DNA from: a bacterium
GTDB lineage: Bacteria; SAR324; NAC60-12
Direction of reading: 5' to 3'
Assembly (NCBI GenBank): GCA_965233585.1
Contig: CBDDTI010000747.1
Location: 416,001-480,000, forward strand
DNA length: 64,000 bases
The notes under the pieces are model-generated. The model was given only the letters and a program-made list of their open reading frames with translations, had not been told where the DNA came from and searched no databases. A program made the position numbers and the translations under genes. Each line of letters begins with the position of its first letter. Position 1 is the stretch's first letter. This document shows positions 2,826 through 55,215 of the stretch, piece by piece.

Positions 2826-3388
2826 GCTAACAGCTTTTGTTTGTGATGAGAGCCGTAGCGATATTTACCAACATTCCCGTTGTTATACACTACACGATGA
2901 CAAGGCACGAAACCTCCTAATAGGTTTCGTCCTACTGCACCCCCCACGGCTCTTACAAAATTCTGAGGGTTTGATGGGTCAACCATTTGGGACAATTCAA
3001 GATAACTAACAGTTTCACCATAAGGAATTTGTAAAAGTGCTTGCCAAACTTTTTTATCAAATGACGAACCTTGAACCAAACCTTGCCATGAAAAGTCAGA
3101 TGTACCGAAAAATGACTCCACTGCTTGGTTGATCTTTTGAGTGTTTTTTTCATACTCGCTAATTTGCCATTGTTTGGTCAATTCCTCAAGATAGACTTGT
3201 TCTTGATACGAAGAATCTACAAATGCGACTTGACACAAAGCATCATGCCATAATGCAACAAAGCAAAGTCCAACAGGGCATGAGACAGTCGCGTACTCCA
3301 AAGGAAGCTGAAGATGATCTTCAAATTGTTGTTGAGAAACGTCCGATAGTTTCCCTTCCTTGATCCAGTACTGTGATTTGGTATTCAT
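2798..3388 (-). CDS. ogt: Methylated-DNA-[protein]-cysteine S-methyltransferase
   Basis: IPYGETVSY, RAVGGA, active site PCHRV; start placed at ATG 3388 (MNTKSQ). Confidence 0.9.
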   Translation of the reverse strand: MNTKSQYWIKEGKLSDVSQQQFEDHLQLPLEYATVSCPVGLCFVALWHDALCQVAFVDSSYQEQVYLEELTKQWQISEYEKNTQKINQAVESFFGTSDFSWQGLVQGSSFDKKVWQALLQIPYGETVSYLELSQMVDPSNPQNFVRAVGGAVGRNLLGGFVPCHRVVYNNGNVGKYRYGSHHKQKLLAWEKQNKTH

Positions 3389-3460
3389 TGTAAAAGGTAT
3401 AGATAAAAATGTAAGAAAATTGACAACGATAGAAACTATCGCTGTCAAGCCAGAGTCAAT

Positions 3461-4582
3461 TTAAGAGATTGGATGGGGAGCTTTGATTTGTTTCATCAAG
3501 TCATCATTCCATTCGCCCTCCACTTGGATATGAGAAGCAGCACCGAGCAAGAAAGCCTCAATCAGGTTATGAGACAAATAAGCGTAAAGTCCGGGCTGTT
3601 TAAACTGGTATGTAAAAGCAGCTGCAGAACCTGCAGCAATCACCCAAGATTCCAAATCGGTTGCAGGAACGTCATTAAAACTCCCACGTTCCCAAACATA
3701 ATCGCCATGCCCACCAATCAAATGTGGGTAAGACTGACGATTTGCTTGAGTGTGAACAAACAAGACAGTTTCACCAACCCTTGCTTTCATAGCGTTGTCT
3801 CCTGTCAACGCTCCCATTTTTCCACCAAATGGAATATGTGTAGGAATCAAGGTTTTCATCGCTTCTATATCATCAGCAGTGGAGCTGATAGAATCGGAAT
3901 AACGTTTGTAATTCCCGTTTTTGTCTTTGGGCAAGTAGTAGTCTTGTTCGCCAATATAGTAAGCACGGTCGTAGCGGATTGGTTTGCCTTGACCATCTTT
4001 CAAGCCATCTCTGGGCAAAATCATCACAGCGCCATTCATACCATGCGTCACATGCCAAGGCACCATCGCACCACCCGGAGCGCAGTGATAAACAAATGTC
4101 CCTGCTTTAATTGCCTTCCATCTTAAAATCACCTGCTCACCGGGGTTGACCAACGTGAGTTCACCGCCGCCTAAAGCACCTGTTGAGGCATGAAAGTCAA
4201 CATTGTGTGGCAACTTGTTTGTTGAAGGGTTGACCAAAGTCAGCTCAATGTAGTCACCTTCATGTGCAACAACTATTGGACCTGGAACTGACCCGTTGTA
4301 GGTGAAAGCCCAAATGAAGGCACCAGGAGCAACCTCTATCTCCTTTTCTTCTATCACAAACTCAATTTCTACGACCTTAGGTCTGCTGCTAGCTACCTGA
4401 CGATGTTCAGGCAAAAATGGAGGCTCTACCAGTTTTTGCTTCACACGTTGTAAGCCTTTCACACTTTCTGCTGATGCTTGTTGAAAGGCAGAAACGCCAA
4501 GTGCTGTTGCCGCTGCAGTAGCCGCGGTAGCTTTAATGAAACCACGACGATCCAAACCTTCTGGATTGACTTGTTCTGTCAT
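3461..4582 (-). CDS. nirK: Copper-containing nitrite reductase with Tat signal
   Basis: DRRGFIK Tat motif, HNVDFHA, YHCAP...[15 protein letters not shown]. Confidence 0.95.
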
Positions 4583-4989
4583 TTTATTTCTCCAATAAAA
4601 AATATATTACAAAATTACCAAAAAATTGCATTTTATTTCGTTTTTTACAAAATGCAGTTTTCCAGTTAGATAAGACACAAATCTATCATACCTCAAAAAA
4701 GTTCTTGACACAAGATATTTTTTAATAAATCATATTTATATTACATTTGACGGGACAGACTTCAAGAAATGTAGGAGTTCAAAAAGAGTCATGCTAGTTC
4801 AGTAGTGCTGATAAAAGGCATTTGAATTGATGGCTTTAGAATGGTTTTGAAAAAATATCTTTGAATTTTTAAAGCTTAGAGTAGAAGTCAGGAATCCAAA
4901 TGTTTGCAGAATTTGAAGATAAATTGAGGGAGTAGTCAATATGATGACCACTTACAAAACTGTCAAAAAAATAATAAATTTTGAAAAAC

Positions 4990-5011
4990 TATTGTTGTCT
5001 ATGCAGCAATA
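4990..5011. promoter_or_regulatory. Palindromic operator candidate upstream of YceI-like copy 1
   Basis: TATTGTTG-tctatg-CAGCAATA imperfect inverted repeat. Confidence 0.55.
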
Positions 5012-5080
5012 CTTGTTTTAACTGAGTTGTGGATTATGACTACAACTTAATTTTTTTAATCTATACTGTATGGAGTTACT

Positions 5081-5719
5081 ATGAAAAAACAAATCAAAGC
5101 CGTTGCCAGAGGGTTGTCAATCACAATCGCATTGGGATTATTAAGTCCGTCTGTCCGGGCAGAAGAAAAACTTGACAAATTACCTCTTTCTGAAGTCCTT
5201 TCAGAACAAGATCAACATTCTGTCGCCTACCGTGTCAAAAAAGTCTATTTTGGGGTGAGAGAGGTCATTGTGGTTGGCAAAAGTAACTCTTTCAAAACGA
5301 GTTTGGAGAAGAAAGGAGACAAAGCAAGAGTGGTAGTATCAGTGCCTTGGACTTCGCTTGATTCACAATCTCGAAACAGAGATGAAACCGTTGCAGAATA
5401 CATGGGGTCAGAATATCCCCAAATTGTCTTCACCAGTGGTTGGACTCCTATTGAAGACATCAAGCAGGGGAGAACTTCTGACCGCTTGAAAATCAAAGGA
5501 ACTCTTGCGATTTCAGGAAGCTCTGAACCAGTGGAAGCCTCTGCTGTTGTCAAACAAGGAACAAACGACTTTGTTGTTGAAACAACTTTGTACACAACAT
5601 TCTCTGACATTAAAGTCAAAACTCCTAATGCTGGTGCGGCTTCAATCAAAGATGACCTGCATATGTACGGTCGCTTTCAAGTCAGTCAAGTTGAAGGGCT
5701 TGAAGCGATACTACAATAA
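5081..5719 (+). CDS. Secreted YceI-like protein, tandem copy 1
   Basis: Signal peptide ending VRA; SLDSQSRNRD...YPQIVF...KGTLAISG pattern of YceI barrels. Confidence 0.7.
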   Translation: MKKQIKAVARGLSITIALGLLSPSVRAEEKLDKLPLSEVLSEQDQHSVAYRVKKVYFGVREVIVVGKSNSFKTSLEKKGDKARVVVSVPWTSLDSQSRNRDETVAEYMGSEYPQIVFTSGWTPIEDIKQGRTSDRLKIKGTLAISGSSEPVEASAVVKQGTNDFVVETTLYTTFSDIKVKTPNAGAASIKDDLHMYGRFQVSQVEGLEAILQ

Positions 5720-5780
5720 TTGAATACTACAATAATTGTAGTGTGTCTTTGCAGGAGCGATGTGATAGCTGAATGATGAT

Positions 5781-5849
5781 ATGTATCCATTAGAACGCAT
5801 CATAGGTTGGAATGTTGAACATACGTCTAACAAAAATAATAAATTTTGA
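5781..5849 (+). pseudogene. Duplicated 5' stub of the MarR-glutathione synthetase gene (duplication junction)
   Basis: MYPLERIIGWNVEHTS matches MYPLKHLIGWNVEHTS at 6627, then runs into the copy-2 promoter. Confidence 0.8.
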
Positions 5850-5879
5850 CAAAGTATTGTTGTCTGTGCAACAATACTT
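5846..5879 (+). promoter_or_regulatory. TTGACA -35 followed by a perfect 11-6-11 palindrome, probable MarR operator
   Basis: TTGACA 5846-5851; AAGTATTGTTG-tctgtg-CAACAATACTT 5852-5879. Confidence 0.65.
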
Positions 5880-5944
5880 GTTTTAACCGAGTTGTGGATT
5901 ATGACTACAACTTAATTTTTTAATCTATACTGTATGGAGTTACC

Positions 5945-6583
5945 ATGAAAAAACAAATCAAAGCCGTTGCCAAAGGATTGTCAATGACAATCGCATTGGG
6001 ATTATTAAGTCAGTCTGTCTGGGCAGAAGATGAACTTGACAAATTGCCTCTTTCTGAAGTCCTTTCAGAACAAGACCAACATTCTGTCGCCTACCGTGTC
6101 AAAAAAATCTTGTTTGGAGTGAAAAAGGTCATTGTGGTTGGCAAAAGTAATTCTTTTAAAACGAGCTTGGAGAAGAAAGGAGATCAAGCAAGGGTGGTGG
6201 TGTCAGTGCCTTGGACTTCATTTGACTCACAAGACCAAGACAGAGATGAAAGTGTTGCAGAACACATGGGGTCAGAATATCCCAAAATTGTTTTCACCAG
6301 TGATTGGACCCCTATTGAAGAAATTAAGCAGGCGAGAACTTCTGATTCCTTAAAAGTCAAGGGAAACCTTGCGGCTTCAGGAAGTTCTGAACCAGTGGAG
6401 GCTTCTGCCGTTGTGAAACAAGGAGCTAGCGATTTTGTTGTTGAAACAACTTTATACACAACATTCTCTCATATTAAAGTCAAAGCTCCTAGTGGTGGTG
6501 TGGCGTCAATTAAAGATGACCTCCACATCTACGGTCGTTTTCAGGTCAGCCAAGTTGAAGGGCTTGAGGCAATACTACAATAA
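5945..6583 (+). CDS. Secreted YceI-like protein, tandem copy 2
   Basis: Same length (212 aa) and highly similar to copy 1, offset 864 bp. Confidence 0.7.
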   Translation: MKKQIKAVAKGLSMTIALGLLSQSVWAEDELDKLPLSEVLSEQDQHSVAYRVKKILFGVKKVIVVGKSNSFKTSLEKKGDQARVVVSVPWTSFDSQDQDRDESVAEHMGSEYPKIVFTSDWTPIEEIKQARTSDSLKVKGNLAASGSSEPVEASAVVKQGASDFVVETTLYTTFSHIKVKAPSGGVASIKDDLHIYGRFQVSQVEGLEAILQ

Positions 6584-6626
6584 TTGTAGTGTTTCTTTGC
6601 AGGAGTGATGCGATAGCTGAATCAAC

Positions 6627-8396
6627 ATGTATCCATTAAAACATCTCATCGGTTGGAATGTTGAACACACGTCTAAAATTTTACGTAGAGAACTACTGAC
6701 AGTTCTCAAACAATATGGCATCTCTCCTGAACAGTGGCAGGTCATGTTTCACCTTTGGTTTAGTGGAAGCTCACTACATCAAAAAGACCTTGCGTTGTTG
6801 ACATCACAAGGTAAATCTAGCATCTCACGTATCATCTTAAAGCTGGAACGTAAAGGTTGGATTCACAAAGAAACAGACCCAGATGACGTTCGTGCCACAG
6901 TCATTTATCCAACTGACCTGAGTCTTCAGTTTAAACATGTCATTTCTCACCAAGTCTCACAGCATTTTGAAAAAATCTTAAAAAATTGGTCTTCTGTTGA
7001 AAATCAATCTCTGATTTTGTTACTCAAGAAGTTGAGACAACTTTGCCTTGACCTTCCAGAACATCAAATTCTTGCTCCTGATTCAAAATTAAGCAGTGAA
7101 GAATTAGCTGATCGCATCAAAGAATCAGCATCGGCTCATGGGCTGTTTGTGAGACAGCAAGATGATGTTCCTATCATCGCTCCTCTTTCGCTTGACCCTT
7201 ATCCCATTACCAAAGAACATTTTGACCAAATTCAAGAAGCGACTTTGATTTATAATGAATTGATGATGAAAGTCTCTCATCAGTTTTCTTGGTTAGAGAC
7301 AGTTGCTTCAAACGTTGCAGAGGCTGATGATTTTACAAAAAATTTATTAGAGATTGCACGTGAGCAACAAAATCACAAACGATTGCTGATTGGACGCAAC
7401 GATTTTTTGTTTCCCCATAATGAGTCACCTAAACAGGTAGAATATAACACCATTTCTTCCAGCTTTTTGTCGTTGGCTCAAAAAGTCTTTGTCACACACC
7501 AAAATAGTGATTTTCAAAACTCACTTCATTCAAAACTAATTCCTAATGATTCTTTGCACGAAGCCTCTCAACTCATAAAAAACGTCTTATGTTCCTGTCC
7601 AAATTCCATTGCATTAATGGTGGTTCAGCCAAATGAGTTAAACGTATTTGACCAATTTGGCTTACTCCATGAGCTAAGAGTTCATCGTATTTTGATGAAA
7701 CGTGTGACTTTTGAAGATTTATTTCAACATGCAAAAGTCGTTGGAAAAGAATTGTATTACCAAGATTCCCTAGTTTCATTGGTGTATTGGCGTACAGGGT
7801 ACCGCCCTGAAGATTATGCTTCTTATCAAGCATGGGAGATGAGGATGCTGATGGAAAGGGCTGATACTTTTCATTGCCCCGATGCTACTCTTCAGCTAGC
7901 AGGCATGAAATCTGTACAACAAGAACTGACCAATCCTGAAGCTCTTCAGCTTTTCTTAAATTCTCAACAAATTCAAAAACTTAAAAAATGCTACGTTGCT
8001 TTACGAAAATGGGGCAAGGACATCGCACAACAAGTCTTGCAAAATCCTGATGGCTATGTGCTGAAGCCCCAAAGAGAGGGAGGGGGGAACAATTTTTTTG
8101 GGCAAGAGATTGTCAAAGCAGTCTCCTCTTTTTCTCAAAAAGAATTAGAGGCTCATATTGTCATGGAATACATTCCTGCACAAAGGCATGATGCAAGACT
8201 TTTGGTCAATGAAAGTTTAACTTGTGAAAAGTGTGTGACAGAAGTTGGAATTTATGGGGGTGCAGTCTGGCAAGATGGTAAGATTCAGAAGAACACAAAT
8301 TTAGGATACCTTGCACGAACCAAACTTGCTTCAGAAAACGAAGGAGGAGTTTGTGCAGGGTATGCCTGTTTAAATTCTCTTTATTCTTCTTTTTGA
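6627..8396 (+). CDS. MarR-family HTH fused to eukaryotic-type glutathione synthetase
   Basis: N-term ISPEQWQVM...SISRIILKLERKGWI..DPDDVRA (MarR); C-term GRNDF, QVEYNTISSSF, YWRTGY.P, LKPQREGGGNN, EGGVCAG. Confidence 0.88.
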   Translation: MYPLKHLIGWNVEHTSKILRRELLTVLKQYGISPEQWQVMFHLWFSGSSLHQKDLALLTSQGKSSISRIILKLERKGWIHKETDPDDVRATVIYPTDLSLQFKHVISHQVSQHFEKILKNWSSVENQSLILLLKKLRQLCLDLPEHQILAPDSKLSSEELADRIKESASAHGLFVRQQDDVPIIAPLSLDPYPITKEHFDQIQEATLIYNELMMKVSHQFSWLETVASNVAEADDFTKNLLEIAREQQNHKRLLIGRNDFLFPHNESPKQVEYNTISSSFLSLAQKVFVTHQNSDFQNSLHSKLIPNDSLHEASQLIKNVLCSCPNSIALMVVQPNELNVFDQFGLLHELRVHRILMKRVTFEDLFQHAKVVGKELYYQDSLVSLVYWRTGYRPEDYASYQAWEMRMLMERADTFHCPDATLQLAGMKSVQQELTNPEALQLFLNSQQIQKLKKCYVALRKWGKDIAQQVLQNPDGYVLKPQREGGGNNFFGQEIVKAVSSFSQKELEAHIVMEYIPAQRHDARLLVNESLTCEKCVTEVGIYGGAVWQDGKIQKNTNLGYLARTKLASENEGGVCAGYACLNSLYSSF

Positions 8397-8740
8397 TCCA
8401 TTTTTTCAATGACAATTTTAGAACCAGTTGTTTTGATTTTAATAGGATCATTAATATCCCAACCTAATTGAGTAAAAAATTGTTGTGGAATGACAATTTT
8501 TTTAGAGACCCCTCCACGACCTGATGCCTGAATGTAAGTTTCACGCTCTTTAGCCTTGGAACCTGACAGACGAGAACTAAAAACAGGAATGGACAGACCA
8601 AGCATTGATGATGCTTTGATAAGTCTTGAGTTAAACGTTGCTAAATTCATTTTTAAATGACTAGCCGTTGCGTTAAGAGTTAAACTTTTAGAAAGAGTTT
8701 TAACTTGTGCAAAAAATTGCTTTGCTTCTTCTACATTCAT
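8381..8740 (-). CDS. Small protein with C-terminal AbrB/MazE-like swapped-hairpin domain
   Basis: KIVIPQQFFTQLGWDINDPIKIKTTGSKIVIEK; start overlaps the lnt stop. Confidence 0.55.
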   Translation of the reverse strand: MNVEEAKQFFAQVKTLSKSLTLNATASHLKMNLATFNSRLIKASSMLGLSIPVFSSRLSGSKAKERETYIQASGRGGVSKKIVIPQQFFTQLGWDINDPIKIKTTGSKIVIEKMDQKEE

Positions 8741-10419
8741 AGCATTGATCCTTTTCTATGTGGGTTAAAATTAAAATGCAAAATTCTATCTTTCCATAAA
8801 AACAATGTCAATACCATACATATAAAAAATAAAAAATATCCCAAGCTGTTTTTAAATTCTCTATAAAATGAGAATCGTTTGCTTAGTTTGACTGTATGTG
8901 TGAAAGCCCCTTCTTGAAATAAACCTAAGACTCTCCCCTCTACTTTTCCTAATAAATTCACAAACTTGGTCTCCCCATTATTTGAGGCATATAGAAATGG
9001 GACACGTGTTTCAATGGCATTCCAGCGAATCATATTTTCTAACATATCAGAGGCGTTGGTTCTTCCAAACCATGCAAGGTTACTCAGATTCACTATGAAT
9101 TGAGTCCCGTTTTGAACCATCTGTCTTGGGATTTCAGGGTCAAACATATCAAAACAAATTGTTCCTGTCAGTTGAAGATTTTCTGAAATTTTAAAAACAG
9201 AATACTCTTGACCTGCTTCAAATTGACTCACTTGAGGAATCACTCTTTTCACAAAACGACCAAACCAAGGAGCAACATCGGCAAATGGAATGTATTCACC
9301 AAATGGGATTAAAAGAATTTTGTCATACTTTCCTATGACCTCTCCATCAGGATTGAGCAACAAGGACGAACTATAATACTTTCTTTCTCCTTCAATTAAA
9401 TCCCAACCTATTGTTGTCAGTAGCAAATAAACATTTGCATTTTGAACAAAAGACTTGACAATCTCCCGTGCCTTTTGGTTGTGAAAATAAGCAGATGAGA
9501 AGGTTGATTCAGGCCAGACGACAAGAGAAGGTACACTAGAGGAAGGTGACTTTTCTAACTCTTTGATAGAATCATCAATGAGTCCAGAAATATTATAGGC
9601 TCTTTTGGAAAATGTAAGGTCTGGGTTGGAGGCTAAGTTAGCAAGTGAAAAGTTAGGTTGTATCGTCACAACTTGTAAAGGTTGCCCCTGATTGAGTGTG
9701 GGTTTTAAATCAAATTCTCTCCAAAATCCATAAGAAAACGTCATCAAAAACATCAAAACGTAGATGCAAGTGAATTTTTTGAGCAAAGCAAATGGTTGTG
9801 TCAAATTGACTTGGGTAGAATTGCTTTGACACTCAAAAGAACGCCATAAACCTAAAAGTAAAAAATTTGAACCTATGACAAAGAATCCCAACCCTGTTGC
9901 CCCAATGAGGTCTGCCGCTTGCGATAAAAATGGAGTCTGCCTAAAGGTCATAGAACCAAAAGACCAGTGAAAAAATCTGGGGTATTGAGCATCAAAAAAT
10001 AATGCTAAAAAAATCCTAAATGGTAAATCTGCAACCAATGGTTGACGAATCAAAAAACAGGGGAGGACAAAGCAAACAAAAAGAATCCCGCCTAATTCCA
10101 AGCCGTATCCAAAACCATTGATTGCCAATGCAATCCAATAAGGGAGATGACCGAAGACCTCCAAACTATGTGCAATCCAAGGCGCACCAAGCACAGAAGC
10201 AACCGAAGCCGTCAACCAACAACAAAGCAAACTGGTTGCAACTTTTTTAAGGAAGGAATGCTGAAGAGCCTGTAAACGGTCTATCAGCACCAATAAGGGG
10301 AATAACCCAACAAGCCAAAGATATTGGTAGTACAGGTATTGAGTTGCAACTCCAAGCATCACTCCTGAAGTTGCAATGCACAGAAGCCAAGAGGCTGGGT
10401 TATTGAAGTGTTTGCCCAT
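8737..10419 (-). CDS. lnt: Apolipoprotein N-acyltransferase
   Basis: Multiple TM helices, QPN, VWPES, YDKILLIPFGEYIP, ICFD, NLAWFG. Confidence 0.92.
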   Translation of the reverse strand: MGKHFNNPASWLLCIATSGVMLGVATQYLYYQYLWLVGLFPLLVLIDRLQALQHSFLKKVATSLLCCWLTASVASVLGAPWIAHSLEVFGHLPYWIALAINGFGYGLELGGILFVCFVLPCFLIRQPLVADLPFRIFLALFFDAQYPRFFHWSFGSMTFRQTPFLSQAADLIGATGLGFFVIGSNFLLLGLWRSFECQSNSTQVNLTQPFALLKKFTCIYVLMFLMTFSYGFWREFDLKPTLNQGQPLQVVTIQPNFSLANLASNPDLTFSKRAYNISGLIDDSIKELEKSPSSSVPSLVVWPESTFSSAYFHNQKAREIVKSFVQNANVYLLLTTIGWDLIEGERKYYSSSLLLNPDGEVIGKYDKILLIPFGEYIPFADVAPWFGRFVKRVIPQVSQFEAGQEYSVFKISENLQLTGTICFDMFDPEIPRQMVQNGTQFIVNLSNLAWFGRTNASDMLENMIRWNAIETRVPFLYASNNGETKFVNLLGKVEGRVLGLFQEGAFTHTVKLSKRFSFYREFKNSLGYFLFFICMVLTLFLWKDRILHFNFNPHRKGSML

Positions 10420-12414: not shown

Positions 12415-13740
12415 ATGAAAAAATTATCTCATCGTCTTTGGACGCTTGGCTTTGCGTCGCTCATCATTACCTCATGTAACCTGAACGAAGGTGGCTCTTC
12501 AGGAGATGAGGAACAAGAAACAGACCCCACCGCACCAGAAAACCCAGTCAATGACGTTGTCTTCACAGACACGGCAGAAGACAAAGCCCAACGAAAAGCA
12601 TTAAAAGACCTTTGGATTAAAATCATGGCAGACTATAATCCCACTTATCCATTCACTGAAAGAGCTGAACAAGATACGGGTGCTATTTTTGCCACCAAGC
12701 CTTCATTTAAATCACCTTATCAAGTTGCCGTGCATTCTGACCGCTTCAAAAATCATGCTTTGAATTGGTACAACTTCTATCGCACAGTTGGCAGATTGAC
12801 TAACGTAACCATTGATACCACTGCTCAAAAACAAGCAGAAGCCTGTGCCACTGGTTTAACAGCAATAAGAGCCTTTAAGCATGGCTTAAATGCAGCCGAA
12901 AAAGCGAAAATCACTGCCAGATTTTCTCAACAAGTGGCTGATGGTGCCAGTTCAGGGTCTGCCACCTCTAACCTTTGGCGACACGCCTCTGGGTCAAATT
13001 TTAAATTTCATGGCACCGTTGAGATGAATTTTACTGAAGGCAAGATGTTGGATGCAGGTGGGAAAGTCAGCATAAGTCCTAGCTCTATGGGGCATCGTTG
13101 GTGGGGTTTAAAGGCAGGCACTAAAACGTTTGGTGTTGGTTTTGTGGCGACTAATCAATCAGGTGATGCGGAGAATGGAAAATGGACACTTGCCTGCTAT
13201 AAGGTGACGGGTGGCGGTGTAAGTTCAGCAACCCTGCCAGCACGCGATTATTCTGCTTTTCCTAACGGCTACTTTCCTATTCAAGCGGATATGGAGAAAG
13301 TAGCCTCGGTAGGGAATAAAAACTTCTTAAAGCGGACTCGACAGCCCATCTCCCTCCATTCTTGGAAACGTAACTACTACACAGTCTGGACTTTGCAGAA
13401 CTTCAAAGGTTACACCATCACCAGAGGGAAAGAAGTGAAAGTGACCATTCGCAAAAATGCCAAAAATGGCAAGGTGCTAGATAGCATTACCACCACCTGG
13501 GCTGGTACCCCAACCTCTAGGGATGATGGGGCATTTTTGCGGGCACACAACAAAGGAGCCAGTGGTGCAGGTAATCATATGATTATTAAGCCAAAGCACG
13601 GTATCATTTCTGGTGCTTTTAAAGCGGTACAAGGCAACGGAGAAAAACGAGCCTTTCACATCACCATTGAAGGGGAAGCAATCAGTCCAAAAATTGAATA
13701 CCACATCGTTTATTACGATTTAGAACACTACCAAGAGTAG
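12415..13740 (+). CDS. Lipoprotein with probable CAP/SCP-like domain
   Basis: Lipobox-like IITSC, acidic linker, LNWYNFYR...SNL...GHRWW. Confidence 0.55.
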   Translation: MKKLSHRLWTLGFASLIITSCNLNEGGSSGDEEQETDPTAPENPVNDVVFTDTAEDKAQRKALKDLWIKIMADYNPTYPFTERAEQDTGAIFATKPSFKSPYQVAVHSDRFKNHALNWYNFYRTVGRLTNVTIDTTAQKQAEACATGLTAIRAFKHGLNAAEKAKITARFSQQVADGASSGSATSNLWRHASGSNFKFHGTVEMNFTEGKMLDAGGKVSISPSSMGHRWWGLKAGTKTFGVGFVATNQSGDAENGKWTLACYKVTGGGVSSATLPARDYSAFPNGYFPIQADMEKVASVGNKNFLKRTRQPISLHSWKRNYYTVWTLQNFKGYTITRGKEVKVTIRKNAKNGKVLDSITTTWAGTPTSRDDGAFLRAHNKGASGAGNHMIIKPKHGIISGAFKAVQGNGEKRAFHITIEGEAISPKIEYHIVYYDLEHYQE

Positions 13741-16678: not shown

Positions 16679-17916
16679 ATGCTAGAACAAATCAAATCCA
16701 TTCAAAACTTGCTGTCAGGGGGGGGGCTTTTTATGACAAGATAATCGTTTTCTTGACACTTCTGGTCTTAGCAGGTTGCACACCTCCTGCTGAAGAAAAT
16801 AAGGAGGGAGAGACGAAGAAGGGTGAAGCTACGTGCGAGGTCAACTCAAACAGTTCTGTCTCAACAGGTCAAGAATTGGTTGCCAATTTCACTTGCACTA
16901 CCACATCAATTTATCAAGGCAAAAAATTAAACATCACTTACGATGAAAGTTTGACTTCCTTGAAGCTGGTCGTCTCAGGTGAAGAAACAACGGGGCAAAG
17001 TGGAAAACTCACCTACACCTTACCTAAACAAGAAGAATTTCAAGCCAAACTGAAGTTAACAGGAGTCACAACAGGCAAGGGACAACTCAAGTTTAAGATT
17101 TTGAGCAAAAAATCAAACTGGGATTTTACAGTGGTACAAGGGGGACCAAAAGCATTGACGTTGGGTGCAGCGGTTGCGTCAACTGCTTTTACCAAGATGC
17201 AAGACACATCAGGCAAAGCCTATGGACGTTCAGTGATGAGGTTAGACACTTCTCAAACTTTAGTTTCCAATGACGAGGAACATTGCGAAGATGCTCCTTT
17301 GAATGCCTTGCTTGTCTCATCAGATAGCTTTGTCAATTGTGAGAAAGTGCATGTTCAGAAAGGCAACAACACCAATCATGTCATCATTCCCAAACAAACT
17401 TGGGACTTGAACAAAACCTACAAAGTAGCAGTCAAGACAGCTGGCGGTGCTTCTGCATTCAATCGCTCTGGCAATCCTGTCTCCTTCACCACTAATAATG
17501 CCAACCACAACACAGCGGCTCACATCACAGGCTTTGATGTTGGGTCAAGACCTAAGGTGCTAAACAATCAATTCCACTTAGAAAAAGATGGAGAACTCTG
17601 GTATTACATCAGTAAAGGTGAGACAGTACCAAGATATGATGCCAGTGAATGTCGGACAATCAACTACAAGGCAACAGATAACAAACAATTCAAAAACCTT
17701 ACTGGCATCAATCAAGCTGATAGAGTGTTTGCTAGGACTATTTTAGATGGTAACACTAGCCACTATCTTGTTACTGGAACTAGTACTCGCACCAATGTCT
17801 ATCCACTCCGTGCATCAAGAGACGGTAATGCTGGTCAACAGAATCTTAGAGTAGGGGCTAGATTTGCTGATATTTACTATTACTTGTGTTTTGTGAAGAC
17901 TCCAGAACGTTCTTAA
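16679..17916 (+). pseudogene. Variable lipoprotein paralog 1, out of frame at G9 tract 16718-16726 (putative phase OFF)
   Basis: AGGAG RBS and ATG 16679 match paralogs; G7 or G10 would join the leader to LVLAGC lipobox and body. Confidence 0.8.
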
Positions 17917-18422: not shown

Positions 18423-19652
18423 ATGTTAGAACAACTCAAGTCCGTTCAGACCCTTTTTGTCAGGGGGGGGGCTTTTTATGACAAATCAATCATTTTCTTG
18501 ACACTTCTGGTCTTGGCAAGTTGCACACCGCCCAATGAAGAAAATGAGGAGGACGCCACACAGAATCAAGCCACTTGCGAGGTCTCCTCTGGCAATTCTT
18601 TGGAAACAGGTCAAGAATTGGTCGCAAACCTCACATGTAACGTATCAGAGACCCATCAAGGCGAAAAATTAAACATCACTTACGATGCAAGTTTGACGTC
18701 TTTGAAGCTGATTGTTGGAGAAAAAGAAACAGTCGGGCAAAGCGGGAAACTCACCCACACCTTACCTAAACAAGAAAAATTTCAAGCCAAGCTAAAGCTC
18801 ACAGGAGTCACAGCAGGCAAAGGGCAAATCCAATTCAAAATCTTGAGTCAAGAATCAAACTGGGGTTTTACAGTAGTTAGTGGAGTGAAGCCATTTTTAA
18901 GCGGGGTTGTTACAGCGTCAGTTTTTACTAAGATGCAAGACACATCAGGCAAAGCTTATGGACGTTCAGTGATGCGATTAGATACTTCTGAAACCCTCCT
19001 TTCCAATGACGAGACAGTTTGCAAAGATGCCCCTTTGAATGCACTGCTTGTCTCATCAGATGACTTTGTCACTTGTGAGAAAGTGCATGTTCAGAAAGGC
19101 AACAACACCAATCATGTCATCATTCCCAAACAAACTTGGGGCTTAAACGAAACTTACAAAGTTGCAGTGAGAACAGCAAGTGGTGCTTCTGCCTTCAATC
19201 GTTCTGGCAATGCCGTTTCCTTCACTACCAACAATGCCAATCACAACACGGCAGCTCACATTACCAGATTTGATGTGGCTTCGTTCTCTAAAGTAGATGG
19301 AAATAGCTTCCACTTGGAAAAAGATGGAGAACTCTGGTATTTCATCAACAAAGGACTCACTGCGCCAAGGTATGATGCCAGTGAATGTCAGGCAATCAAC
19401 TACAAGGCGACAGATGACAAACAATTTAAACATCTTGCTGGCAGAAGCAGGACTGACAAAGTGTTTGTCAGAACTATTTTAGATCAAAGTATTAATTACA
19501 TTGTTTCTGGTTCTAGTACTGGAGTTAATGCCCATTCACTCCTTGCACGTTTAGACGGTTTCAATGTTGCCCCCAATCATTCTCCAGTGGGACAGTCAAA
19601 AACTGGGGGACTCTATTATCTTTGTTCTGTGAAGATTCCAGAACGTTCCTAA
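18423..19652 (+). CDS. Variable lipoprotein paralog 2, in frame through G9 tract 18463-18471
   Basis: LVLASC lipobox; colinear with paralogs 1, 3, 5. Confidence 0.88.
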   Translation: MLEQLKSVQTLFVRGGAFYDKSIIFLTLLVLASCTPPNEENEEDATQNQATCEVSSGNSLETGQELVANLTCNVSETHQGEKLNITYDASLTSLKLIVGEKETVGQSGKLTHTLPKQEKFQAKLKLTGVTAGKGQIQFKILSQESNWGFTVVSGVKPFLSGVVTASVFTKMQDTSGKAYGRSVMRLDTSETLLSNDETVCKDAPLNALLVSSDDFVTCEKVHVQKGNNTNHVIIPKQTWGLNETYKVAVRTASGASAFNRSGNAVSFTTNNANHNTAAHITRFDVASFSKVDGNSFHLEKDGELWYFINKGLTAPRYDASECQAINYKATDDKQFKHLAGRSRTDKVFVRTILDQSINYIVSGSSTGVNAHSLLARLDGFNVAPNHSPVGQSKTGGLYYLCSVKIPERS

Positions 19653-20961: not shown

Positions 20962-22188
20962 ATGTTAGAACAAATCAAATCCATTCAAACCCTTTTTGTC
21001 AGGGGGGGGGCTTTTTATGACAAATCAATCGTTTTCTTGACAATGCTTGTCTTGGCAGGTTGTGTTCCGCCAGGGGAAGAGGAGAAAGAAGATGGACTTG
21101 CCAGCAACATCAAGTGCGAGGTGGACTCTACCGAATCCGTTACAACAGGTGAGGAACTGGTTGCCAACGTCACATGCAACACACCAGAACTTGCTCAAGG
21201 CAGAAAATTACAGGTCATTTACGATGAAAGTTTGACTTCTTTGAAGCTAGTCGTGGCAGAAGAAGAAACAATCGGGGAAGATGGAAAGTTGACTTACACT
21301 TTACCTAATCAAGAACAATTCCAAGCCAAACTGAAGTTAACAGGAGTTGCAGAAGGAGAAGGACAAGTCAAGTTCAAAATCTTGAGTCAAAAATCAAACT
21401 GGGCATTCACAGTGGTCAGAGGAGGACCAAGGGCATTGACTTTAGGTGCAGATGTCGCGGCATCTGTCTTTACCAAGATGCAAGATTCATCAGGCAAAGC
21501 CTATGGACGTTCCGTGATGAGATTAGACACTTCTGAAACCCTTGTTTCCAATGACGAAGTACATTGTGAGAATGCTCCTTTGAATGCACTGCTTGTCTCG
21601 TCAGATGACTTTGCAAATTGTGAGAAGGTCTATGTTCAAAAAGGCGCTAACACCAATTATGTCATCATTCCCAAGCAAACTTGGGCGTTAAACAAAACTT
21701 ACAAAGTGGCAATCAAAACGGCAAACGGAGGCTCTGCTTTCAATCGTTCTGGCAACCCTGTTTCCTTCTCCACGAACGATGCTAATCACAAAACCACTGC
21801 ACACGTCACCAGATTTGATGCTGGGGCAAGACCTAAAGTGCTAGACAATCAATTCCATTTGGAAAAAGATGGAGACCTTTGGTATTACATCAGCAAAGGC
21901 GACACATTGCCCCAATATAATCCCACTGAATGCCAAGAGATCAACTATCAAAATGCAGATGACGTCAAATTTACAAATCTTGCTAGCATTGATGATTCTG
22001 CCAAAGAATTGGCTAGATCTCTTAATCGCAGAACCAGAAGGTATATCGCTGATGCTGCTGGAAATAACCGAGTTAAGGTATTTGTTACCACCCTATCATC
22101 TAAGAAAACTTTTTTCCATACGGTAGGCAAACATCCTTTTCATATATTTATTTATTTTTGTTCTGTTCAGATTCCAGAACGTACCTAA
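20962..22188 (+). CDS. Variable lipoprotein paralog 3, in frame through G9 tract 21002-21010
   Basis: LVLAGC lipobox; colinear with the other paralogs. Confidence 0.88.
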   Translation: MLEQIKSIQTLFVRGGAFYDKSIVFLTMLVLAGCVPPGEEEKEDGLASNIKCEVDSTESVTTGEELVANVTCNTPELAQGRKLQVIYDESLTSLKLVVAEEETIGEDGKLTYTLPNQEQFQAKLKLTGVAEGEGQVKFKILSQKSNWAFTVVRGGPRALTLGADVAASVFTKMQDSSGKAYGRSVMRLDTSETLVSNDEVHCENAPLNALLVSSDDFANCEKVYVQKGANTNYVIIPKQTWALNKTYKVAIKTANGGSAFNRSGNPVSFSTNDANHKTTAHVTRFDAGARPKVLDNQFHLEKDGDLWYYISKGDTLPQYNPTECQEINYQNADDVKFTNLASIDDSAKELARSLNRRTRRYIADAAGNNRVKVFVTTLSSKKTFFHTVGKHPFHIFIYFCSVQIPERT

Positions 22189-23065: not shown

Positions 23066-24406
23066 ATGTTAGGACAAATCAAATCAATTCAAAACTCTCT
23101 TGCTAGGAGAGGTTTTTTTTATGACGGAATAATTGTTTTCTTGACACTTCTTGCTTTAGCGGGTTGCACACCTCCTGCTGAAGAAAATGAAGAAGGAAAT
23201 GAAGCCTCCAATGACGTCAAGTGCAAGGTCACCTCTGGCAATTCTTTGGAAACAGGTCAAGAATTGGTTGCCAACCTCACCTGCACCGCATCAACAATTT
23301 ATCAAGGTAAAAAGTTAAACATCACTTACGATGAAAGTTTAGCTTCTTTGAAGCTGGTCGTTGGAGAAAAAGAAACAGTTGGACAAAGTGGAAAGTTGTC
23401 TTACATTTTACCTAGAAAAAAAGAATTTCAAGCCAAGCTGAAGTTGACAGGAGTGACAGCAGGCAAAGGTCAACTGCAATTCAAAATCTTGAGAAAAAAA
23501 TCAAACTGGGCTTTTACAGTGGTCAATGGCAACGGACTTGACATTAACAACGGAGCTGACGTTTCCAAATACACTTGGAAGCGGGTCGCTTCTTCAGCAG
23601 GGTGGTCTGCTCGTAATGTTCACACAAGCGTCGTGTTCAATAACAAAATCTGGGTACTAGGAGGAATTGATTTTGGCAGAAAAAACGATGTCTGGAGTTC
23701 TTCTGATGGCAAGAATTGGACAGAAGAAACTTCTTCAGCAGGTTGGTCTGCTAGGAATTCCCACACAAGCGTCGTGTTCAATAACAAAATCTGGGTGCTA
23801 GGAGGAATTGATTCTGGCTGGAAAAACGATGTCTGGAGTTCTTCTGATGGCAAGAATTGGACTCAAAGCACAGCTTCAGCAGGTTGGTCTGCTCGTGCTT
23901 TGCACACAAGCGTTGTGTTCAATAACAAAATCTGGGTGCTGGGAGGTTTTACTGGTGGCAATAAAAACGATGTCTGGAGTTCTTCTGACGGCATTAATTG
24001 GACAGAAGACACTTCTTCGGCAGGTTGGGATGCCCGTTATGATCACGCAAGCGTCGTGTTCAATAACAAAATCTGGGTGCTAGGAGGCTCTGGTAAAAAC
24101 GATGTCTGGAGTTCTTCTGACGGCATTAATTGGACTCAAAGTACAGCTTCAGCAGATTGGTCTACTCGTGATTCTCACACAAGTGTCGTGTTCAATAACA
24201 AAATCTGGGTGCTAGGGGGATTTGATGGCGTCAGGAAAAACGATGTCTGGAGTTCTTCTGACGGCAGTAATTGGACAGAAGATACTTCTTCAGCAGGTTG
24301 GGATGTTCGTGCTGGACATAAAAGCGTTGTGTTCAACAACAAAATCTGGGTGCTAGGAGGTAGAAGCACTGCGAAAAGAAACGATGTTTGGGCAGCTGGT
24401 CCCTAA
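23066..24406 (+). CDS. Variable lipoprotein paralog 4: shared N-terminal domain plus six Kelch-like repeats
   Basis: LALAGC; first ~150 aa homologous to paralogs; 6x HTSVVFNNKIWVLGG..KNDVW, mostly 141-bp period. Confidence 0.88.
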   Translation: MLGQIKSIQNSLARRGFFYDGIIVFLTLLALAGCTPPAEENEEGNEASNDVKCKVTSGNSLETGQELVANLTCTASTIYQGKKLNITYDESLASLKLVVGEKETVGQSGKLSYILPRKKEFQAKLKLTGVTAGKGQLQFKILRKKSNWAFTVVNGNGLDINNGADVSKYTWKRVASSAGWSARNVHTSVVFNNKIWVLGGIDFGRKNDVWSSSDGKNWTEETSSAGWSARNSHTSVVFNNKIWVLGGIDSGWKNDVWSSSDGKNWTQSTASAGWSARALHTSVVFNNKIWVLGGFTGGNKNDVWSSSDGINWTEDTSSAGWDARYDHASVVFNNKIWVLGGSGKNDVWSSSDGINWTQSTASADWSTRDSHTSVVFNNKIWVLGGFDGVRKNDVWSSSDGSNWTEDTSSAGWDVRAGHKSVVFNNKIWVLGGRSTAKRNDVWAAGP

Positions 24407-24850: not shown

Positions 24851-26033
24851 ATGTTAGAACAAATCAAATCCATTCAAAACCTCTTGTCAGGGGGGGGCTT
24901 TTTATGACAAAGTAATCCTTTTCTTGACACTTCTGGTCTTGGCAGGTTGCACACCGCCTGCTGAAGAAAACGAGGGGGAAGCCACCCAAAATCAAGCCAC
25001 TTGCGAGGTCACCTCTGGCAGTTCTTTGGCAACGGGTCAAGAATTGGTTGCAGACTTAACATGCGCTGTATCAAACATTTATCAAGGCAAACGGTTAAGC
25101 ATCGCTTACGATGAAAGTTTGACGTCTTTGAAGCTGGTTGTGTCAGGGGACAAAGCAGTCGGACAGATTGGAACGTTAAACTACAAATTACCTAGAAAAA
25201 AAGAGTTTCAAGCCAAGCTGAAGTTGACAGGAGTCGCAGCAGGCAAGGGACAACTCAAGTTCAAAATCTTGAGAAAAAAATCAAATTGGGATTTTACAGT
25301 AGTCGCTGCTGACAATGCTTTGACCAAGATGCAAGACTCATCAGGCAAAGCTTACGGACGTTCGGTGTTGAGATTAGATACTTCTCAAACATTAGTTTCT
25401 AATGATGAGACAGTTTGCAGAAATGCACCTTTGAATGCACTGCTTGTGTCGTCAGATAATTTCACAACTTGTGAAAAAGTGTATGTTCAAAAAGGCGACA
25501 ACACCAATCATGTCATTATTCCCAAACAGACTTGGGGCTTAAACAAAACTTACAAACTGGCAGTCAAAACGGCAAGCGGAGCTTTTGCACTCAATCGTTC
25601 TGGCAATCCTGTCTCCTTTAACACAAACAATGCCAATCACAACACTGTGGCTCACGTCACCAAGTTTGATGCTGGTTCAATACCTCAAGTGCTAAACAAT
25701 CACTTCCATTTGGAAAAAGACGGAGAACTCTGGTATTACATCAACAAAGGAACAAACGCACCAAGGTATGACGCCAGTGAATGTCGGTCTATCAACTACA
25801 AGGCAACAGATGATAAACAATTTAAAAACCTTAGTGGACTCAATCAAGCTGACAGAGAGCTAGCCAAAACTATTTTAAACCGCAATAGTTACTATATTGC
25901 TTCTGTTACTGGAGGTGGAAATACTCGTTTGTATAGACTCTCAACAACCATAGGCACTAACTCCAATGTGGGAGGTCCATTGGCTTCTAATCTTTACTAT
26001 CTTTGTTTTGTGAAGATTCCAGAACGTGCTTAA
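24851..26033 (+). pseudogene. Variable lipoprotein paralog 5, out of frame at G8 tract 24890-24897 (putative phase OFF)
   Basis: AGGAG RBS and ATG 24851; reads ...SGGGFL-TGA; G7 or G10 restores the LVLAGC lipobox frame. Confidence 0.8.
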
Positions 26034-45159: not shown

Positions 45160-46632
45160 ATGTTGGACTATATGAGAGATAGCAAATCCATTTTGCAAGG
45201 TCAGCATCATCAGGTGGCAGATGTGTTTGACGTGTCTATCAGGGAGCAAGGCACAACCACTGTTTATGGTCAAACGACCAAAAGCATGTTGGAAGATTTT
45301 GAAGCGATGGAGGAATTTGGTGCAGTCAGAAAACAAATTGCCTCCTTTAACTTTAGGGATTTATACACTGTGCAAGATCAATTTGTGGAAGTTTTGAAAG
45401 ACAGGCAAAGCGATCTTGAAGGCTGTTTTGCCGCCTTTCCTTTGGAAGACTATGATGTCAGTTTGAAAAAATTTGACAACTATCAAATTCCCAATCTCTT
45501 CATTGATGTTTTTTTTGCTCATGCAGACTCTACTTTTATTTATGAAGAAGCTCATCAAAAAGCAGAGTTATTGATTAAAGTGCTTAAACAGGCAAGGAAG
45601 ATTCTGGCTCCTGCTCAGATCAATCCTAAAACGGGCAAGCCGATTGGGGAAATTTACATCAATTTTGGTGATTATTTTGAGCAAAGGGAGCATGTCAGTT
45701 TTTTTGATGATGTGTTTACAGAAGTCAAAAAAGTCAGCTTTCAGGGAGTCTGCTTTGAAGAATTTCGGGGGATTAGTTTGTTGGAAGACATCTATTCTGC
45801 CACACAGTACTTGCGTGAACATTTTCCTCATGGGCAATATCAAATTTTGTCTCATATTCATGGGGGCAATGGGTTGGAAGATGCAGCAAATTTAGTGGCA
45901 GCAGTGGCTGGGGCAAATGGTGTTTGGTCTGCTTTGACGCCTCTTTCTTCGCTTTCTTCACACGGGTCGTCATTGGTTTATCTGACCAATTTAATCCGTT
46001 ATGGCAACCCCCAAGTTGAACAAAAATACAACATGAAGAAATCCTATCAGATTAGCAAAGAGATGTATCTGCGTTCTTTTGCTAATCAAGAGCAGATTCC
46101 AAGAGAACTGCCCGTCATTGGAAGGAACGCTTACAACCTGAATCGTGCAGACCTTTCACAAGAAGATAATGATATTCCAAACACAATTCCGAGTCAAAAA
46201 ATAGGGAGAACGTTGTCTCATCGCTTCGTCCCCCTTCTGTATGACCATGCTTCCATTCAAGCACGATTTGCAGAGTTGGGGTTTCACATCAATCATTTTC
46301 AGATAGAGCAATTCACAAACTACGTGCATCAACGTCTTGTTGATGATTTTCATTATACTGAAGACACCAGAATAGACTTTGATTCTCCTGAATTTTTAAA
46401 AAGTTACATCTGCCAATCTTTGCAAAAGAAACAAGCAGTCAACTTTTGGGATACAACGACCATCACATCTCATGTCAATCTTTGCAAAAGAAACAAGCAA
46501 TCAATTTTTGGGATACAACGACCATCACATCTCATGTCAATCTTTGCAAAAGAAACAAGCAGTCAGTTTTTAGCTTATAACTCATTTAAGCGGGTCAAAA
46601 TCTGCAAGACCCCAAAACACAGGGAGAGTTGA
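45160..46632 (+). CDS. Divergent DRE-TIM-like barrel protein of unknown function; C-terminus extended by a tandem repeat
   Basis: DVSIRE, HIHGGNGLEDAANLVAAVAGA. Confidence 0.55.
   Translation: MLDYMRDSKSILQGQHHQVADVFDVSIREQGTTTVYGQTTKSMLEDFEAMEEFGAVRKQIASFNFRDLYTVQDQFVEVLKDRQSDLEGCFAAFPLEDYDVSLKKFDNYQIPNLFIDVFFAHADSTFIYEEAHQKAELLIKVLKQARKILAPAQINPKTGKPIGEIYINFGDYFEQREHVSFFDDVFTEVKKVSFQGVCFEEFRGISLLEDIYSATQYLREHFPHGQYQILSHIHGGNGLEDAANLVAAVAGANGVWSALTPLSSLSSHGSSLVYLTNLIRYGNPQVEQKYNMKKSYQISKEMYLRSFANQEQIPRELPVIGRNAYNLNRADLSQEDNDIPNTIPSQKIGRTLSHRFVPLLYDHASIQARFAELGFHINHFQIEQFTNYVHQRLVDDFHYTEDTRIDFDSPEFLKSYICQSLQKKQAVNFWDTTTITSHVNLCKRNKQSIFGIQRPSHLMSIFAKETSSQFLAYNSFKRVKICKTPKHRES
46414..46565. 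repeat. 62-bp tandem repeat, about 2.5 copies
   Basis: CAATCTTTGCAAAAGAAACAAGCA.TCA at 46414, 46476, 46538. Confidence 0.93.
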
Positions 46633-53237: not shown

Positions 53238-55098
53238 ATGCAAAAGCTCATCAATCGTTGTTTTGTTCATTTGGCATCTGTTGTCAAACCTTCTGTTGTC
53301 CAGACAGGTGTTTGCCTGCTGTGCATCACGACTCTCTTTGCCTGCAGTAGTGACGATGGTGGTGTGTCCACGGTGACCGTCACAGAAAAAGTAGTGCCAC
53401 CAACCAAAAACCAGCAAGCACAGGGGGGGTCAATGTTTGCAGATTCCCCAAGCACAGATGCAAGGCACAGGCAACCTTGCCATCTTCAACTCACTAGATG
53501 AAGATGTCCTGCTTTCCTATTCCAGCAATCTAAATACTGACGATGTGATTGCTGTCATTGGCGCCAAGCAGAAAGGGGTCAAAGTGGACATTTCCAAAAG
53601 AACGAGTTCCATCGTCACCGTGTTCGCCTTCAAGATGCCAGCCGTGCAAGACTATTTTAAAGCAGACTGCGAGGATTCCCAAATGCCAACGGCTTTTATG
53701 CAAAGTGGGTTCATTCCATCAGCCAAATCCAGTTTTGTGATAGGCACTGAGGAGTCCAAGTCAGACTATGGCATCTTGCTGATACTCAACAAACGTTCTG
53801 GACTGGTATCTATTTGTCAAGGCAGTTCAAGGAACAAGCAAATCGGAGTGGTTCAGGCTGGTCAGTCTAACTATCGGATTCAAATCCCCATCGGCTACAA
53901 ACAACTCGTGTTTTACCTACACAACCCATCAGGAGGCATTGACTTTACAAAACCTGTCTTTTCCAAAAATCTGGTCTTTAACAAAGGAGACACTAAACTG
54001 GTATTCATTCCCAACAAGACCATTTTCAATGGTGCAAAAATCAAGTTTCTCAATGCCTCTGCCCAAGATGTGATGCTGATGGTGAGAAAGAGTGATAGCC
54101 CGTTGTCTAATGTAGAGTGCAGTTGTGAGGTCGTTGGCAAGCAATCGGATAAACCTGTGATGATTCTGGTGCAAGACAAGTATTATGCTGATGACTTCTT
54201 CTTTTCTGTGATTAGTTTAGACACAGGTCAGACCTTGACAGAGAGTCAACCCTTTCAGTTAGATAAAAAAACGAACGCCAGTTTTAAGCTACAAACAGAT
54301 TTGACTCTGAAGAAGACAGATTTGGGCAAGGGTCAAGTTGTTGTGCCAAATGAAAAACCCAGCACGCCAAGTGAAGTGAAAACAAGCGAGGTCAAAGCCA
54401 GCAGTGTCAAAGTCAGTTGGTCGCCTTCAGCAGATTCTGATGGTGAAGTGGCAGGTTATGAAGTCTCTTACAAGACAAGTAGCGGGTCATGGACTGGAAC
54501 ACAAACCACCACTCAAACCAATTTGATTGTATCAGGACTTCAACCTGAAACCAGCTACACTTTCCGCATTCGTGCCAAAGATGATGAAAATGCTTGGAGT
54601 GCTTATGAACAAAGTCAATCTGTCAAAACACCAGCCCCTGATAATCTAGCACCCAGCAAACCAAGCACCATCAGCACCAGCCAAGTGACAGGCTCCAGTA
54701 TCAAGGTTTCATGGTCTGCTGCCACAGATTCTGACGGAGTCATTGCAAACTATGAAATATCTTACAAAGCAGGTGATGGATTCTGGACAGGAACAAGCAT
54801 GACAGCTAGCACAACCTACACTTTTCAATCACTCCAGCCTAACACCAGCTACACCTTCCGTGTTCGTGCCAAAGATGACGAGGGAGACTGGAGTGCTTAC
54901 CAACAAAGCACGGCTGTCAGCACTGCACCCAATGCACCAACTGCGCTTGCTGTCTCTGCTAGAAGCCTGACTTTTATGATGACTTCAGGCAGCAGCTATG
55001 AATGCTCCAAAGATGCTGGCACAACCAAAACCAACTGCAACAGCCCCTTTAGTTTTGGCGATGATGCCATTGCTGAACTTGACCCACAATCTCACTTT
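53238..55098 (+). pseudogene. Lipoprotein with two FN3 domains, out of frame at G7 tract 53423-53429 and truncated at a REP remnant
   Basis: LFAC lipobox in the 53238 frame; G6 or G9 joins it to the 53437 frame; two VSW..SD....Y.VSY...YTFR.RAKD FN3 units. Confidence 0.75.
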
Positions 55099-55215
55099 TA
55101 TCCTAAGATTAGTCTTGTGTTTTTTTGTACCTGTGCTAGACTGCAAGAGAATGTAGAGAGGGGAATGTGCACAAACATCTTTTGCTTCTTTAAATTTTTA
55201 ATTCAAAACAACACA

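Follow-up and report, generated by a model that had tools for sequence, protein, structure and literature searches.

Why should a bacterial glutathione synthetase (GS) carry a complete DNA-binding repressor domain at its N-terminus, and what might the one half do for the other? The question is raised by a 589-aa open reading frame (ORF; 6627-8396, forward strand) in a 64-kb stretch of DNA, hereafter the window, from a genome of the SAR324 phylum (GenBank assembly GCA_965233585.1, contig CBDDTI010000747.1), in which a winged-helix domain of the MarR family is followed by a GS of the eukaryotic type. Coordinates are positions in the window, and residue numbers are those of the 589-aa fusion protein unless human GS is stated; the assembly comprises 12 Mb in 747 contigs and represents a 92%-complete genome. 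We find that this MarR-GS fusion is real and not an artefact, that its GS half looks active, and that a palindrome on the promoter upstream is the likely operator of its MarR half. Judging from these sequence comparisons, we lean modestly towards a protein that would both make glutathione and repress the promoter of its own operon, with two halves that would function in parallel and exchange no signal.

The fused gene and its synthetase half

The ORF has no internal stop and, as a preliminary description of the locus had claimed, places both domains on one chain: in a hidden Markov model scan for MarR, GSH_synthase and GSH_synth_ATP, which that description had proposed as a check, each family scores above its curated cut-off. 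Within residues 30-90, Pfam MarR reaches 34.4 against 24.6 bits and MarR_2 36.3 against 27 bits; residues 157-586 match GSH_synthase and GSH_synth_ATP (E = 4.5e-77), with PF03917 at 259.8 against 25 bits (model positions 4-362 of 363) and PF03199 at 85.5 against 20.9 bits. The three motifs that had been singled out are in place, namely QVEYNTISSSF at residue 270, LKPQREGGGNN at residue 479 and EGGVCAG at residue 572. An AlphaFold2 model of the whole protein (mean pLDDT 91, pTM 0.78) contains a full MarR fold up to about residue 140 and a full GS fold. A separate start for the GS is unlikely, since codons 136-175 hold no in-frame ATG, GTG or TTG and the GS fold begins near residue 154-157.

The same architecture, which the preliminary description had suggested seeking elsewhere, recurs once, in a 591-aa protein of identical build from another public assembly (P0002; 73% identity). 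Between the two fusions, 108 of 140 positions are identical in the MarR part, 321 of 433 in the GS part and 5 of 18 in the linker; because the MarR part is at least as conserved as the GS part, it is probably under constraint. Among the matches listed, neither a word-indexed protein search with the whole fusion (163 matches, best 120 listed) nor one with residues 1-200 (2 matches among 1089 candidates) returned any fusion besides P0002, and among the best 150 of 2840 matches in a HMMER scan of 50% representatives, every match but the query begins at residue 143 or later. No fusion was found in the 87 other genomes of our phylum set (88 genomes including the source genome, with 14 genomes as a control set), at the nine MarR loci read on genome contigs, or on metagenome contigs, which yielded six MarR-domain matches. 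That relatives always carry two separate genes, which had been named as grounds for doubting the fusion, thus holds in 87 of 87 other phylum genomes and is overturned by P0002 alone. A word search among shorter proteins recovered no relatives among 149 candidates, despite the existence of stand-alone MarR relatives; since these were missed, such searches lack sensitivity when identity is near 40%, and fusions of lower frequency may escape them. The ESM Atlas returned generic MarR clusters only (at most 0.84).

The gene could be dismissed as a misassembly or as eukaryotic DNA that was binned with the bacterium, readings that we regard as extremely improbable. The bin itself gives some ground for suspicion: 535 of its 747 contigs (5.35 Mb) have less than 20% ORF cover, the densely coding part amounts to about 3-3.7 of the 12 Mb, and, with most contigs coding so poorly, it likely holds much non-bacterial DNA. 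Further, the best sequencing runs may derive from the source sample and hence not be independent of the assembly; in three runs from one sample, one contig per run spans 5892-9000 with no differences or gaps, and a fourth run covers 7150-9000 only. Against these doubts, none of the assembled contigs that cross the junction contains the stop or frameshift between the domains that the preliminary description had held to be decisive, the gene lies on a 1.07-Mb contig amid bacterial genes of similar third-position codon GC, its GS falls on the bacterial side of the tree (see below), and P0002 is an independent instance of the fusion.

The GS half resembles its characterized counterparts closely. 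Its model matches human GS (2HGS) in Foldseek with E = 4.5e-39, a TM-score of 0.88 by target and a root-mean-square deviation (rmsd) of 2.4 Å, and Z-scores of 40-44 against GS-type chains predict an ATP-grasp fold of the eukaryotic GS type. The glutathione- and ATP-binding residues reported for human GS, R125, S149, S151, E214, N216, R267, K305, K364 and R450 (PMC2845819), are kept nine out of nine in the fusion, as R257, S277, S279, E337, N339, R389, K428, K480 and R564, when mapped by hand on an alignment with 2HGS and 5OES. The fusion thus shares its predicted fold and named active-site residues with the human, potato (5OES) and yeast (1M0W) members of the PF03917/PF03199 family, from which it differs in belonging to a bacterial branch, in being 30-40% identical to them, in having a cysteine at the position of human Ala462 and in its N-terminal MarR domain, shared among the GS relatives listed by P0002 only. 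Of the 70 columns that 36 unfused GS conserve, the fusion retains 64, and the GGVCAG loop is common to the fusion and its unfused relatives. No second GS was found in the 92%-complete genome, and E. coli-type GshB (PF02955), a profile that matched 8 of the 14 control genomes, has no match in the fusion or the genome. A gshA-like gene of the GCS2 family lies on the fusion's contig, its best model being plant-type glutamate-cysteine ligase at a score below the cut-off (231 against 463); with the other gshA types, PF04262 gave no match, and the PF03074 profile matched no control and is uninformative. Taken together, the GS half looks active.

The MarR half and its predicted operator

The MarR half is modelled with helices at residues 2-30, 34-46, 52-59 and 63-75, a wing at 79-95 and further helices over 97-139, that is, with the winged-helix core and both the N- and C-terminal dimerisation helices, and this model aligns with MarR proteins over 136 residues (best Z 16.5, rmsd 2.0 Å). 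At least 10 of the 12 unfused MarR rows agree in each of 40 columns; the fusion keeps 29 of these and P0002 33. Q52, S67, R68 and the wing motif D87-x-R89 are retained in the fusion; we take S67, R68, D87 and R89, together with D62 and R72, to be DNA-contact positions.

A candidate binding site for this domain lies directly upstream of the YceI-like gene that precedes the fusion, where the preliminary description had pointed to a perfect 11-6-11 palindrome over the promoter and proposed it as the operator. The palindrome is as described and overlaps a predicted sigma-70-type promoter (Table 1), one of 13 promoter-like sites found against 10.9 expected by chance. Shuffling the bases of the 225-nt upstream region 2000 times gave an equally perfect repeat once; the window holds three such repeats, so its perfection by itself is modest evidence. 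In relatives, conservation is limited to the central 14 bp of the palindrome, with the core GTTGTC-N4-CAAC. Five of the five closest MarR loci carry this core close to the start of the operon with no more than one mismatch, often right after TTGACA; several relatives have TTGACA or TTGAC just upstream of the operator. Here the predicted core sits between the -35 and -10 hexamers, which is the usual site of a repressor.

An operator matrix built from ten sites of relatives, none of them from the source genome, gives 5856-5875 the highest score anywhere in the 12-Mb assembly, 20.1. Held-out MarR loci carry a site in 10 of 13 cases overall, and the seven held-out genome loci (nine in total, two being omitted from the count as repeats of training proteins) all score at least 19.4, the site at one of them (L049) lying downstream of marR. 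No operator was found at seven distant MarR loci (maximum 8.5), at 24 native GS loci (maximum 11.1; five are longer cuts of counted loci) or at four yceI loci from genomes without this MarR (maximum 10.9; one is cut short upstream). Footprinting against relatives and the held-out loci thus bear out the earlier proposal, and the palindrome is the likely operator of the fused MarR. An Rfam search of 4500-9000 gave no match.

A wider regulon was considered and rejected, since the next-best sites in the one genome scanned are intragenic, are found on contigs that are small and code poorly or look repetitive, or score within the range of shuffled sequence. Other sites in the large contigs score at most 17.9, within the chance range, and there is none before the gshA-like gene (score 0.3). 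The second-best site on the large contigs (G000:C746:299824, 17.9) lies between two co-oriented genes, before a short-chain-dehydrogenase-like gene so labelled by eye.

The stand-alone MarR subfamily that shares the operator consensus ATAGTTGTCTAGACAACTAT includes records from SAR324, Chloroflexota, Acaryochloris, Fodinibius/Aliifodinibius, Rhodothermales and Spirochaetia; no characterized member or inducer was found in the literature searched. Its proteins are 26-41% identical to the MarR half and have the same operator core near their own gene, and they differ from the fusion in ending after about 145-175 residues. At four loci from Chloroflexota, Acaryochloris and Fodinibius/Aliifodinibius (L043, L045, L047 and L048, at about 2900-4020), the MarR gene is followed by one for a hydrophobic protein of 153-167 aa, which has no Pfam match in the two cases tested; operators stand before marR and before the hydrophobic gene. 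This pairing of MarR with a hydrophobic protein is a predicted small regulon that is as yet undescribed.

Origin of the fusion and the relation between its halves

The eukaryotic-type GS is the standard enzyme of most of the SAR324-phylum genomes searched and is unfused in all that have it except the source genome, P0002 being the other fusion. PF03917 matches 64 of the 88 phylum genomes, the source included, and none of the 14 controls; of the 63 other genomes of the order 56 have the enzyme, and so do 7 of the 19 from a second family in the class. A GS match was obtained in 39 of 40 related genomes, with the MarR part covered in none, the nearest named GS relative among the matches listed is labelled SAR324, and the named MarR loci include SAR324 records. 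The term 'eukaryotic-type' in the preliminary description is therefore correct as a family name, the enzyme so named being the ordinary one for the phylum. The phylogeny against eukaryotic GS that had been suggested there points the same way: in two quick trees the fused GS has a long branch and falls with the bacterial sequences, which a split of 100% support separates from eukaryotic GS. A grouping with animal GS is rejected (p-AU 7e-5), and so is a recent transfer from a eukaryotic host. In the source genome the distance ratio is 2.0 for MreB and 1.6 for GS; since MreB, a single control protein, is relatively more divergent, the long branch is likely lineage-wide, and an acceleration specific to GS after the fusion is unsupported by this control.

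The MarR domain (E <= 1e-8) occurs in 12 of the 88 phylum genomes, and in the 11 others besides the source its reading frames have 152-195 codons. In two relatives (G016 and G040) a yceI-like gene directly precedes a stand-alone marR in the order seen here, the two genes overlapping by 4 nt in G016, with GS on another contig; in a third (G083) marR is followed by a weak yceI-like match. The neighbours of unfused MarR are yceI-like, cytochrome b561, DUF169 or unclassified genes, and GS stands at none of the loci read. GS itself is convergent with mreB in many relatives and in one (G024) follows a gshA-like gene, the orthologue of the one on the fusion's contig; in the source genome, mreB is followed directly by a co-oriented gene and no GS is nearby. 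We infer that the housekeeping GS gene was relocated to a position downstream of a yceI-marR pair that was already there, with loss of the marR stop codon.

In the arrangement we favour, MarR dimers would bind the 14-bp core and block transcription of the second yceI gene and of marR-gs; the enzyme likely represses its own gene in this way, because the predicted MarR site is on the promoter that drives the operon. The resulting negative feedback would hold the synthetase at a set level. A small molecule acting on the MarR pocket, perhaps no longer the one that did so before the fusion, would induce the YceI-like protein jointly with GS in a stress or detoxification response. A loose coupling of the halves is favoured by the variable, low-confidence linker and by the lack of a site before the gshA-like gene.

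Several observations weigh against this arrangement. The fusion is carried by two sequences only, P0002 being compared as a protein. Three of six metagenome MarR loci lack the operator, and of the three that reach 19.4 or more two are near-duplicates. In addition, of 10 shuffled versions of the five largest contigs (2.9 Mb), 5 contain a site that scores 20.1 or more; as this score is not significant genome-wide, the case for the operator rests on position and conservation. The nearest Shine-Dalgarno-like sequence, AGGAG, lies about 21 nt before the marR-gs start (6601-6629) and is followed by a two-codon ORF. In the MarR half, the present copy differs at D62 and R72, two positions near the recognition helix that P0002 shares with 12 of 12 unfused rows, and at I55 and L60 as well. 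In the GS half, K429, found in 35 of 36 unfused GS, is replaced by Ser or Cys in the fusions, and the TIGR01986 (glut_syn_euk) cut-off of 329.8 is narrowly missed by the fusion (315.6) and by P0002 (325.8), the unfused P0003 and P0005 scoring 391-392 and P0009 272.8.

The MarR changes could be those of a decaying passenger, GS having merely borrowed the yceI-marR promoter while MarR no longer represses well. The set D62G, R72K, L60S and I55L is private to the present copy, whose predicted DNA-reading helix has drifted; its MarR half is also farther than that of P0002 from 7 of the 12 unfused rows and nearer to one, and the operator of the first yceI copy has lost a core base. We consider decay unlikely in view of a MarR identity between the two fusions that equals or exceeds that of GS, the retention of S67-R68 and the wing D87-x-R89, and an operator that is perfect beside the fusion and the best in the assembly, when no operator is seen at yceI loci whose genomes lack this MarR. 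The GS changes, in turn, raise a switch to another acceptor amino acid or to a non-catalytic sensor, since GS-like proteins, such as those of nematodes, can lose the canonical activity (PMC5919673). The K429 replacement, the score under the equivalog cut-off and the long branch would all suit such a switch, which we nonetheless judge very unlikely: this is the sole GS found in the genome, it keeps the named active-site residues, its GGVCAG loop is common to unfused relatives, and the branch length, by the one MreB comparison, probably belongs to the lineage.

A further possibility, in line with the link between thiol status and operon expression that the preliminary description had proposed, is coupling of the halves as in a trigger enzyme: the GS domain, or else a cysteine specific to the fusions, would sense glutathione, gamma-Glu-Cys or ATP and switch MarR on or off, much as FMN and CTP act on RbkR. 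Seven conserved MarR positions are changed in both fusions, and five of them fall in the first helix (F10, Y13, R14, L18 and F19). In MarR proteins this helix lines the inducer pocket and the dimer interface, so that the clustering of shared changes there may reflect a remodelled original inducer site. Both fusions further have a cysteine, C140, at the border of MarR and linker, 9 of the 12 unfused rows being without any cysteine. Eukaryotic GS dimers form via N-terminal elements (PMC2845819), which in the fusion would put two MarR domains near one axis. Set against this, the MarR half retains a complete fold, unlike that in fusions relying on the enzyme as sensor, its linker is variable, no glutathione-pathway regulon emerged from the genome scan, and unfused MarR relatives were never beside GS in the loci read. 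We therefore rate the coupled form as rather improbable, and correspondingly doubtful the fuller scenario of a recently born glutathione-sensing transcription factor, in which MarR would have captured GS, the inducer pocket would have been remodelled, and the ligand state of GS or modification of C140 would set synthetase expression.

Returning to the self-repressing synthetase with loosely joined halves, its build resembles that of known enzyme-regulators, and the variant with GS appears to be new. The closest analogue is RbkR of Archaea, a PF12802 winged helix with a riboflavin kinase (PMC5397151): there too a MarR-like domain precedes a housekeeping biosynthetic enzyme whose stand-alone form is replaced in the genome, palindromic operators were predicted by comparative genomics, and rbkR lies within its own regulon. 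By contrast, RbkR is described as an ancient and widespread activator that controls pathway genes and responds to CTP and FMN (PMC5397151), whereas the present fusion has GS as its enzyme, is known from two sequences, would have inherited its operator from an unrelated yceI-marR unit and has no pathway regulon that we could see. The trigger enzymes BirA, NadR and PutA likewise hold a DNA-binding and a catalytic domain on one chain; they have other folds, serve other pathways and are proven metabolite-controlled regulators (PMC5397151). The available passages of a review of archaeal thiols name GshF as a glutathione-pathway fusion and contain no MarR fusion (PMC7278568), and we found no MarR-GS fusion in the literature searched, a search that covered few subscription journals.

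Accounts of how enzyme-regulator fusions originate mostly rely on ancient cases in which coupling is complete. For this fusion, relatives provide each of the two unfused parents, the ancestral operon and a predicted operator, so that the passage from promoter capture to coupling is directly testable; were the glutathione-sensing scenario true, this would be a trigger enzyme caught soon after its origin. The status of GS as the standard enzyme of the phylum and the definition of an operator motif for a cross-phylum MarR subfamily are independent of coupling. The reach of the fusion itself is narrow, confined to two sequences of one lineage.

The duplicated yceI unit and the neighbourhood

Upstream of the fusion lie two YceI-like genes, unmentioned in the preliminary description, which represent a tandem duplication of about 864 bp; besides yceI, the copied DNA includes the promoter and codons 1-16 of marR (Table 1). 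The first repeat unit is found on a separate 892-nt contig in three runs from one sample. Both yceI copies are intact, with a synonymous distance (dS) of 0.35, a non-synonymous distance (dN) of 0.079 and dN/dS of 0.23. The perfect operator belongs to the promoter adjoining the fusion; copy 1 carries one core change and a weaker -35-like hexamer, TTGAAA, at 4981-4986. The duplication would have come later than the fusion, giving the locus another yceI gene whose promoter and operator are weaker. Hairpins in the leaders may be a decayed second operator or a weak terminator; terminator-like sites number five against 3.2 expected by chance.

Table 1. Features of the yceI-marR-gs locus, in window coordinates.
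Feature	Position	Strand	Evidence and remarks
Repeat unit 1: yceI copy 1 with its promoter region, followed by intergenic DNA and the marR 5' stub	4967-5830	+	blastn of flanks; alignment with 91% mean column identity
Weaker predicted operator copy, core 4994-5007, CAGC for CAAC	4991-5010		Matrix score 16.2, rank 14 in assembly
YceI-like copy 1, 212 aa	5081-5719	+	PF04264, E 1.2e-8; N-terminus signal-peptide-like by eye
Truncated marR 5' stub at duplication junction: 16 matching codons, 6 codons, stop	5781-5849	+	blastn 5723-5830 vs 6571-6676, 88%
Predicted sigma-70-type promoter, TTGACA-18 nt-AACAAT, TG before -10	5846-5875	+	Consensus scan
Palindrome 11-6-11, predicted MarR operator (arms 5852-5862 and 5869-5879)	5852-5879		14-bp core 5859-5872; top matrix score
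Hairpin and T-run in leader	5889-5913 (also 5023-5049)	+	Possibly decayed second operator or weak terminator
YceI-like copy 2, 212 aa, 84% identical to copy 1	5945-6583	+	PF04264, E 2.6e-8
MarR winged-helix domain, aa 1-140	6627-7046	+	Pfam; predicted model; fold match
Linker, aa 141-156	7047-7094	+	Poorly conserved; pLDDT <50, low confidence at 145-152
Eukaryotic-type GS domain, aa 157-589	7095-8396	+	Pfam; alignment to 2HGS and 5OES; Foldseek

On the far side of about 500 bp of AT-rich DNA, and divergent from yceI, lies a gene for a copper-containing nitrite reductase with a Tat signal (3461-4582, reverse strand; TIGR02376 above cut-off); no FNR-like box, with one mismatch allowed, was found in 4561-5090. 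Downstream, a 119-aa ORF (8381-8740, reverse strand) is convergent with the fusion and overlaps its last 16 nt; its C-terminus is weakly MazE/AbrB-like (E = 5e-4, under the cut-off), and no toxin gene was seen adjoining it. Farther along the window are six ORFs of 370-490 aa without a Pfam match (12415-13740, 16753-17916, 18423-19652, 20962-22188, 24924-26033 and 45160-46632), near which lie an ORF with Kelch repeats (23066-24406) and one for an FN3/SBBP beta-propeller (53437-56949).

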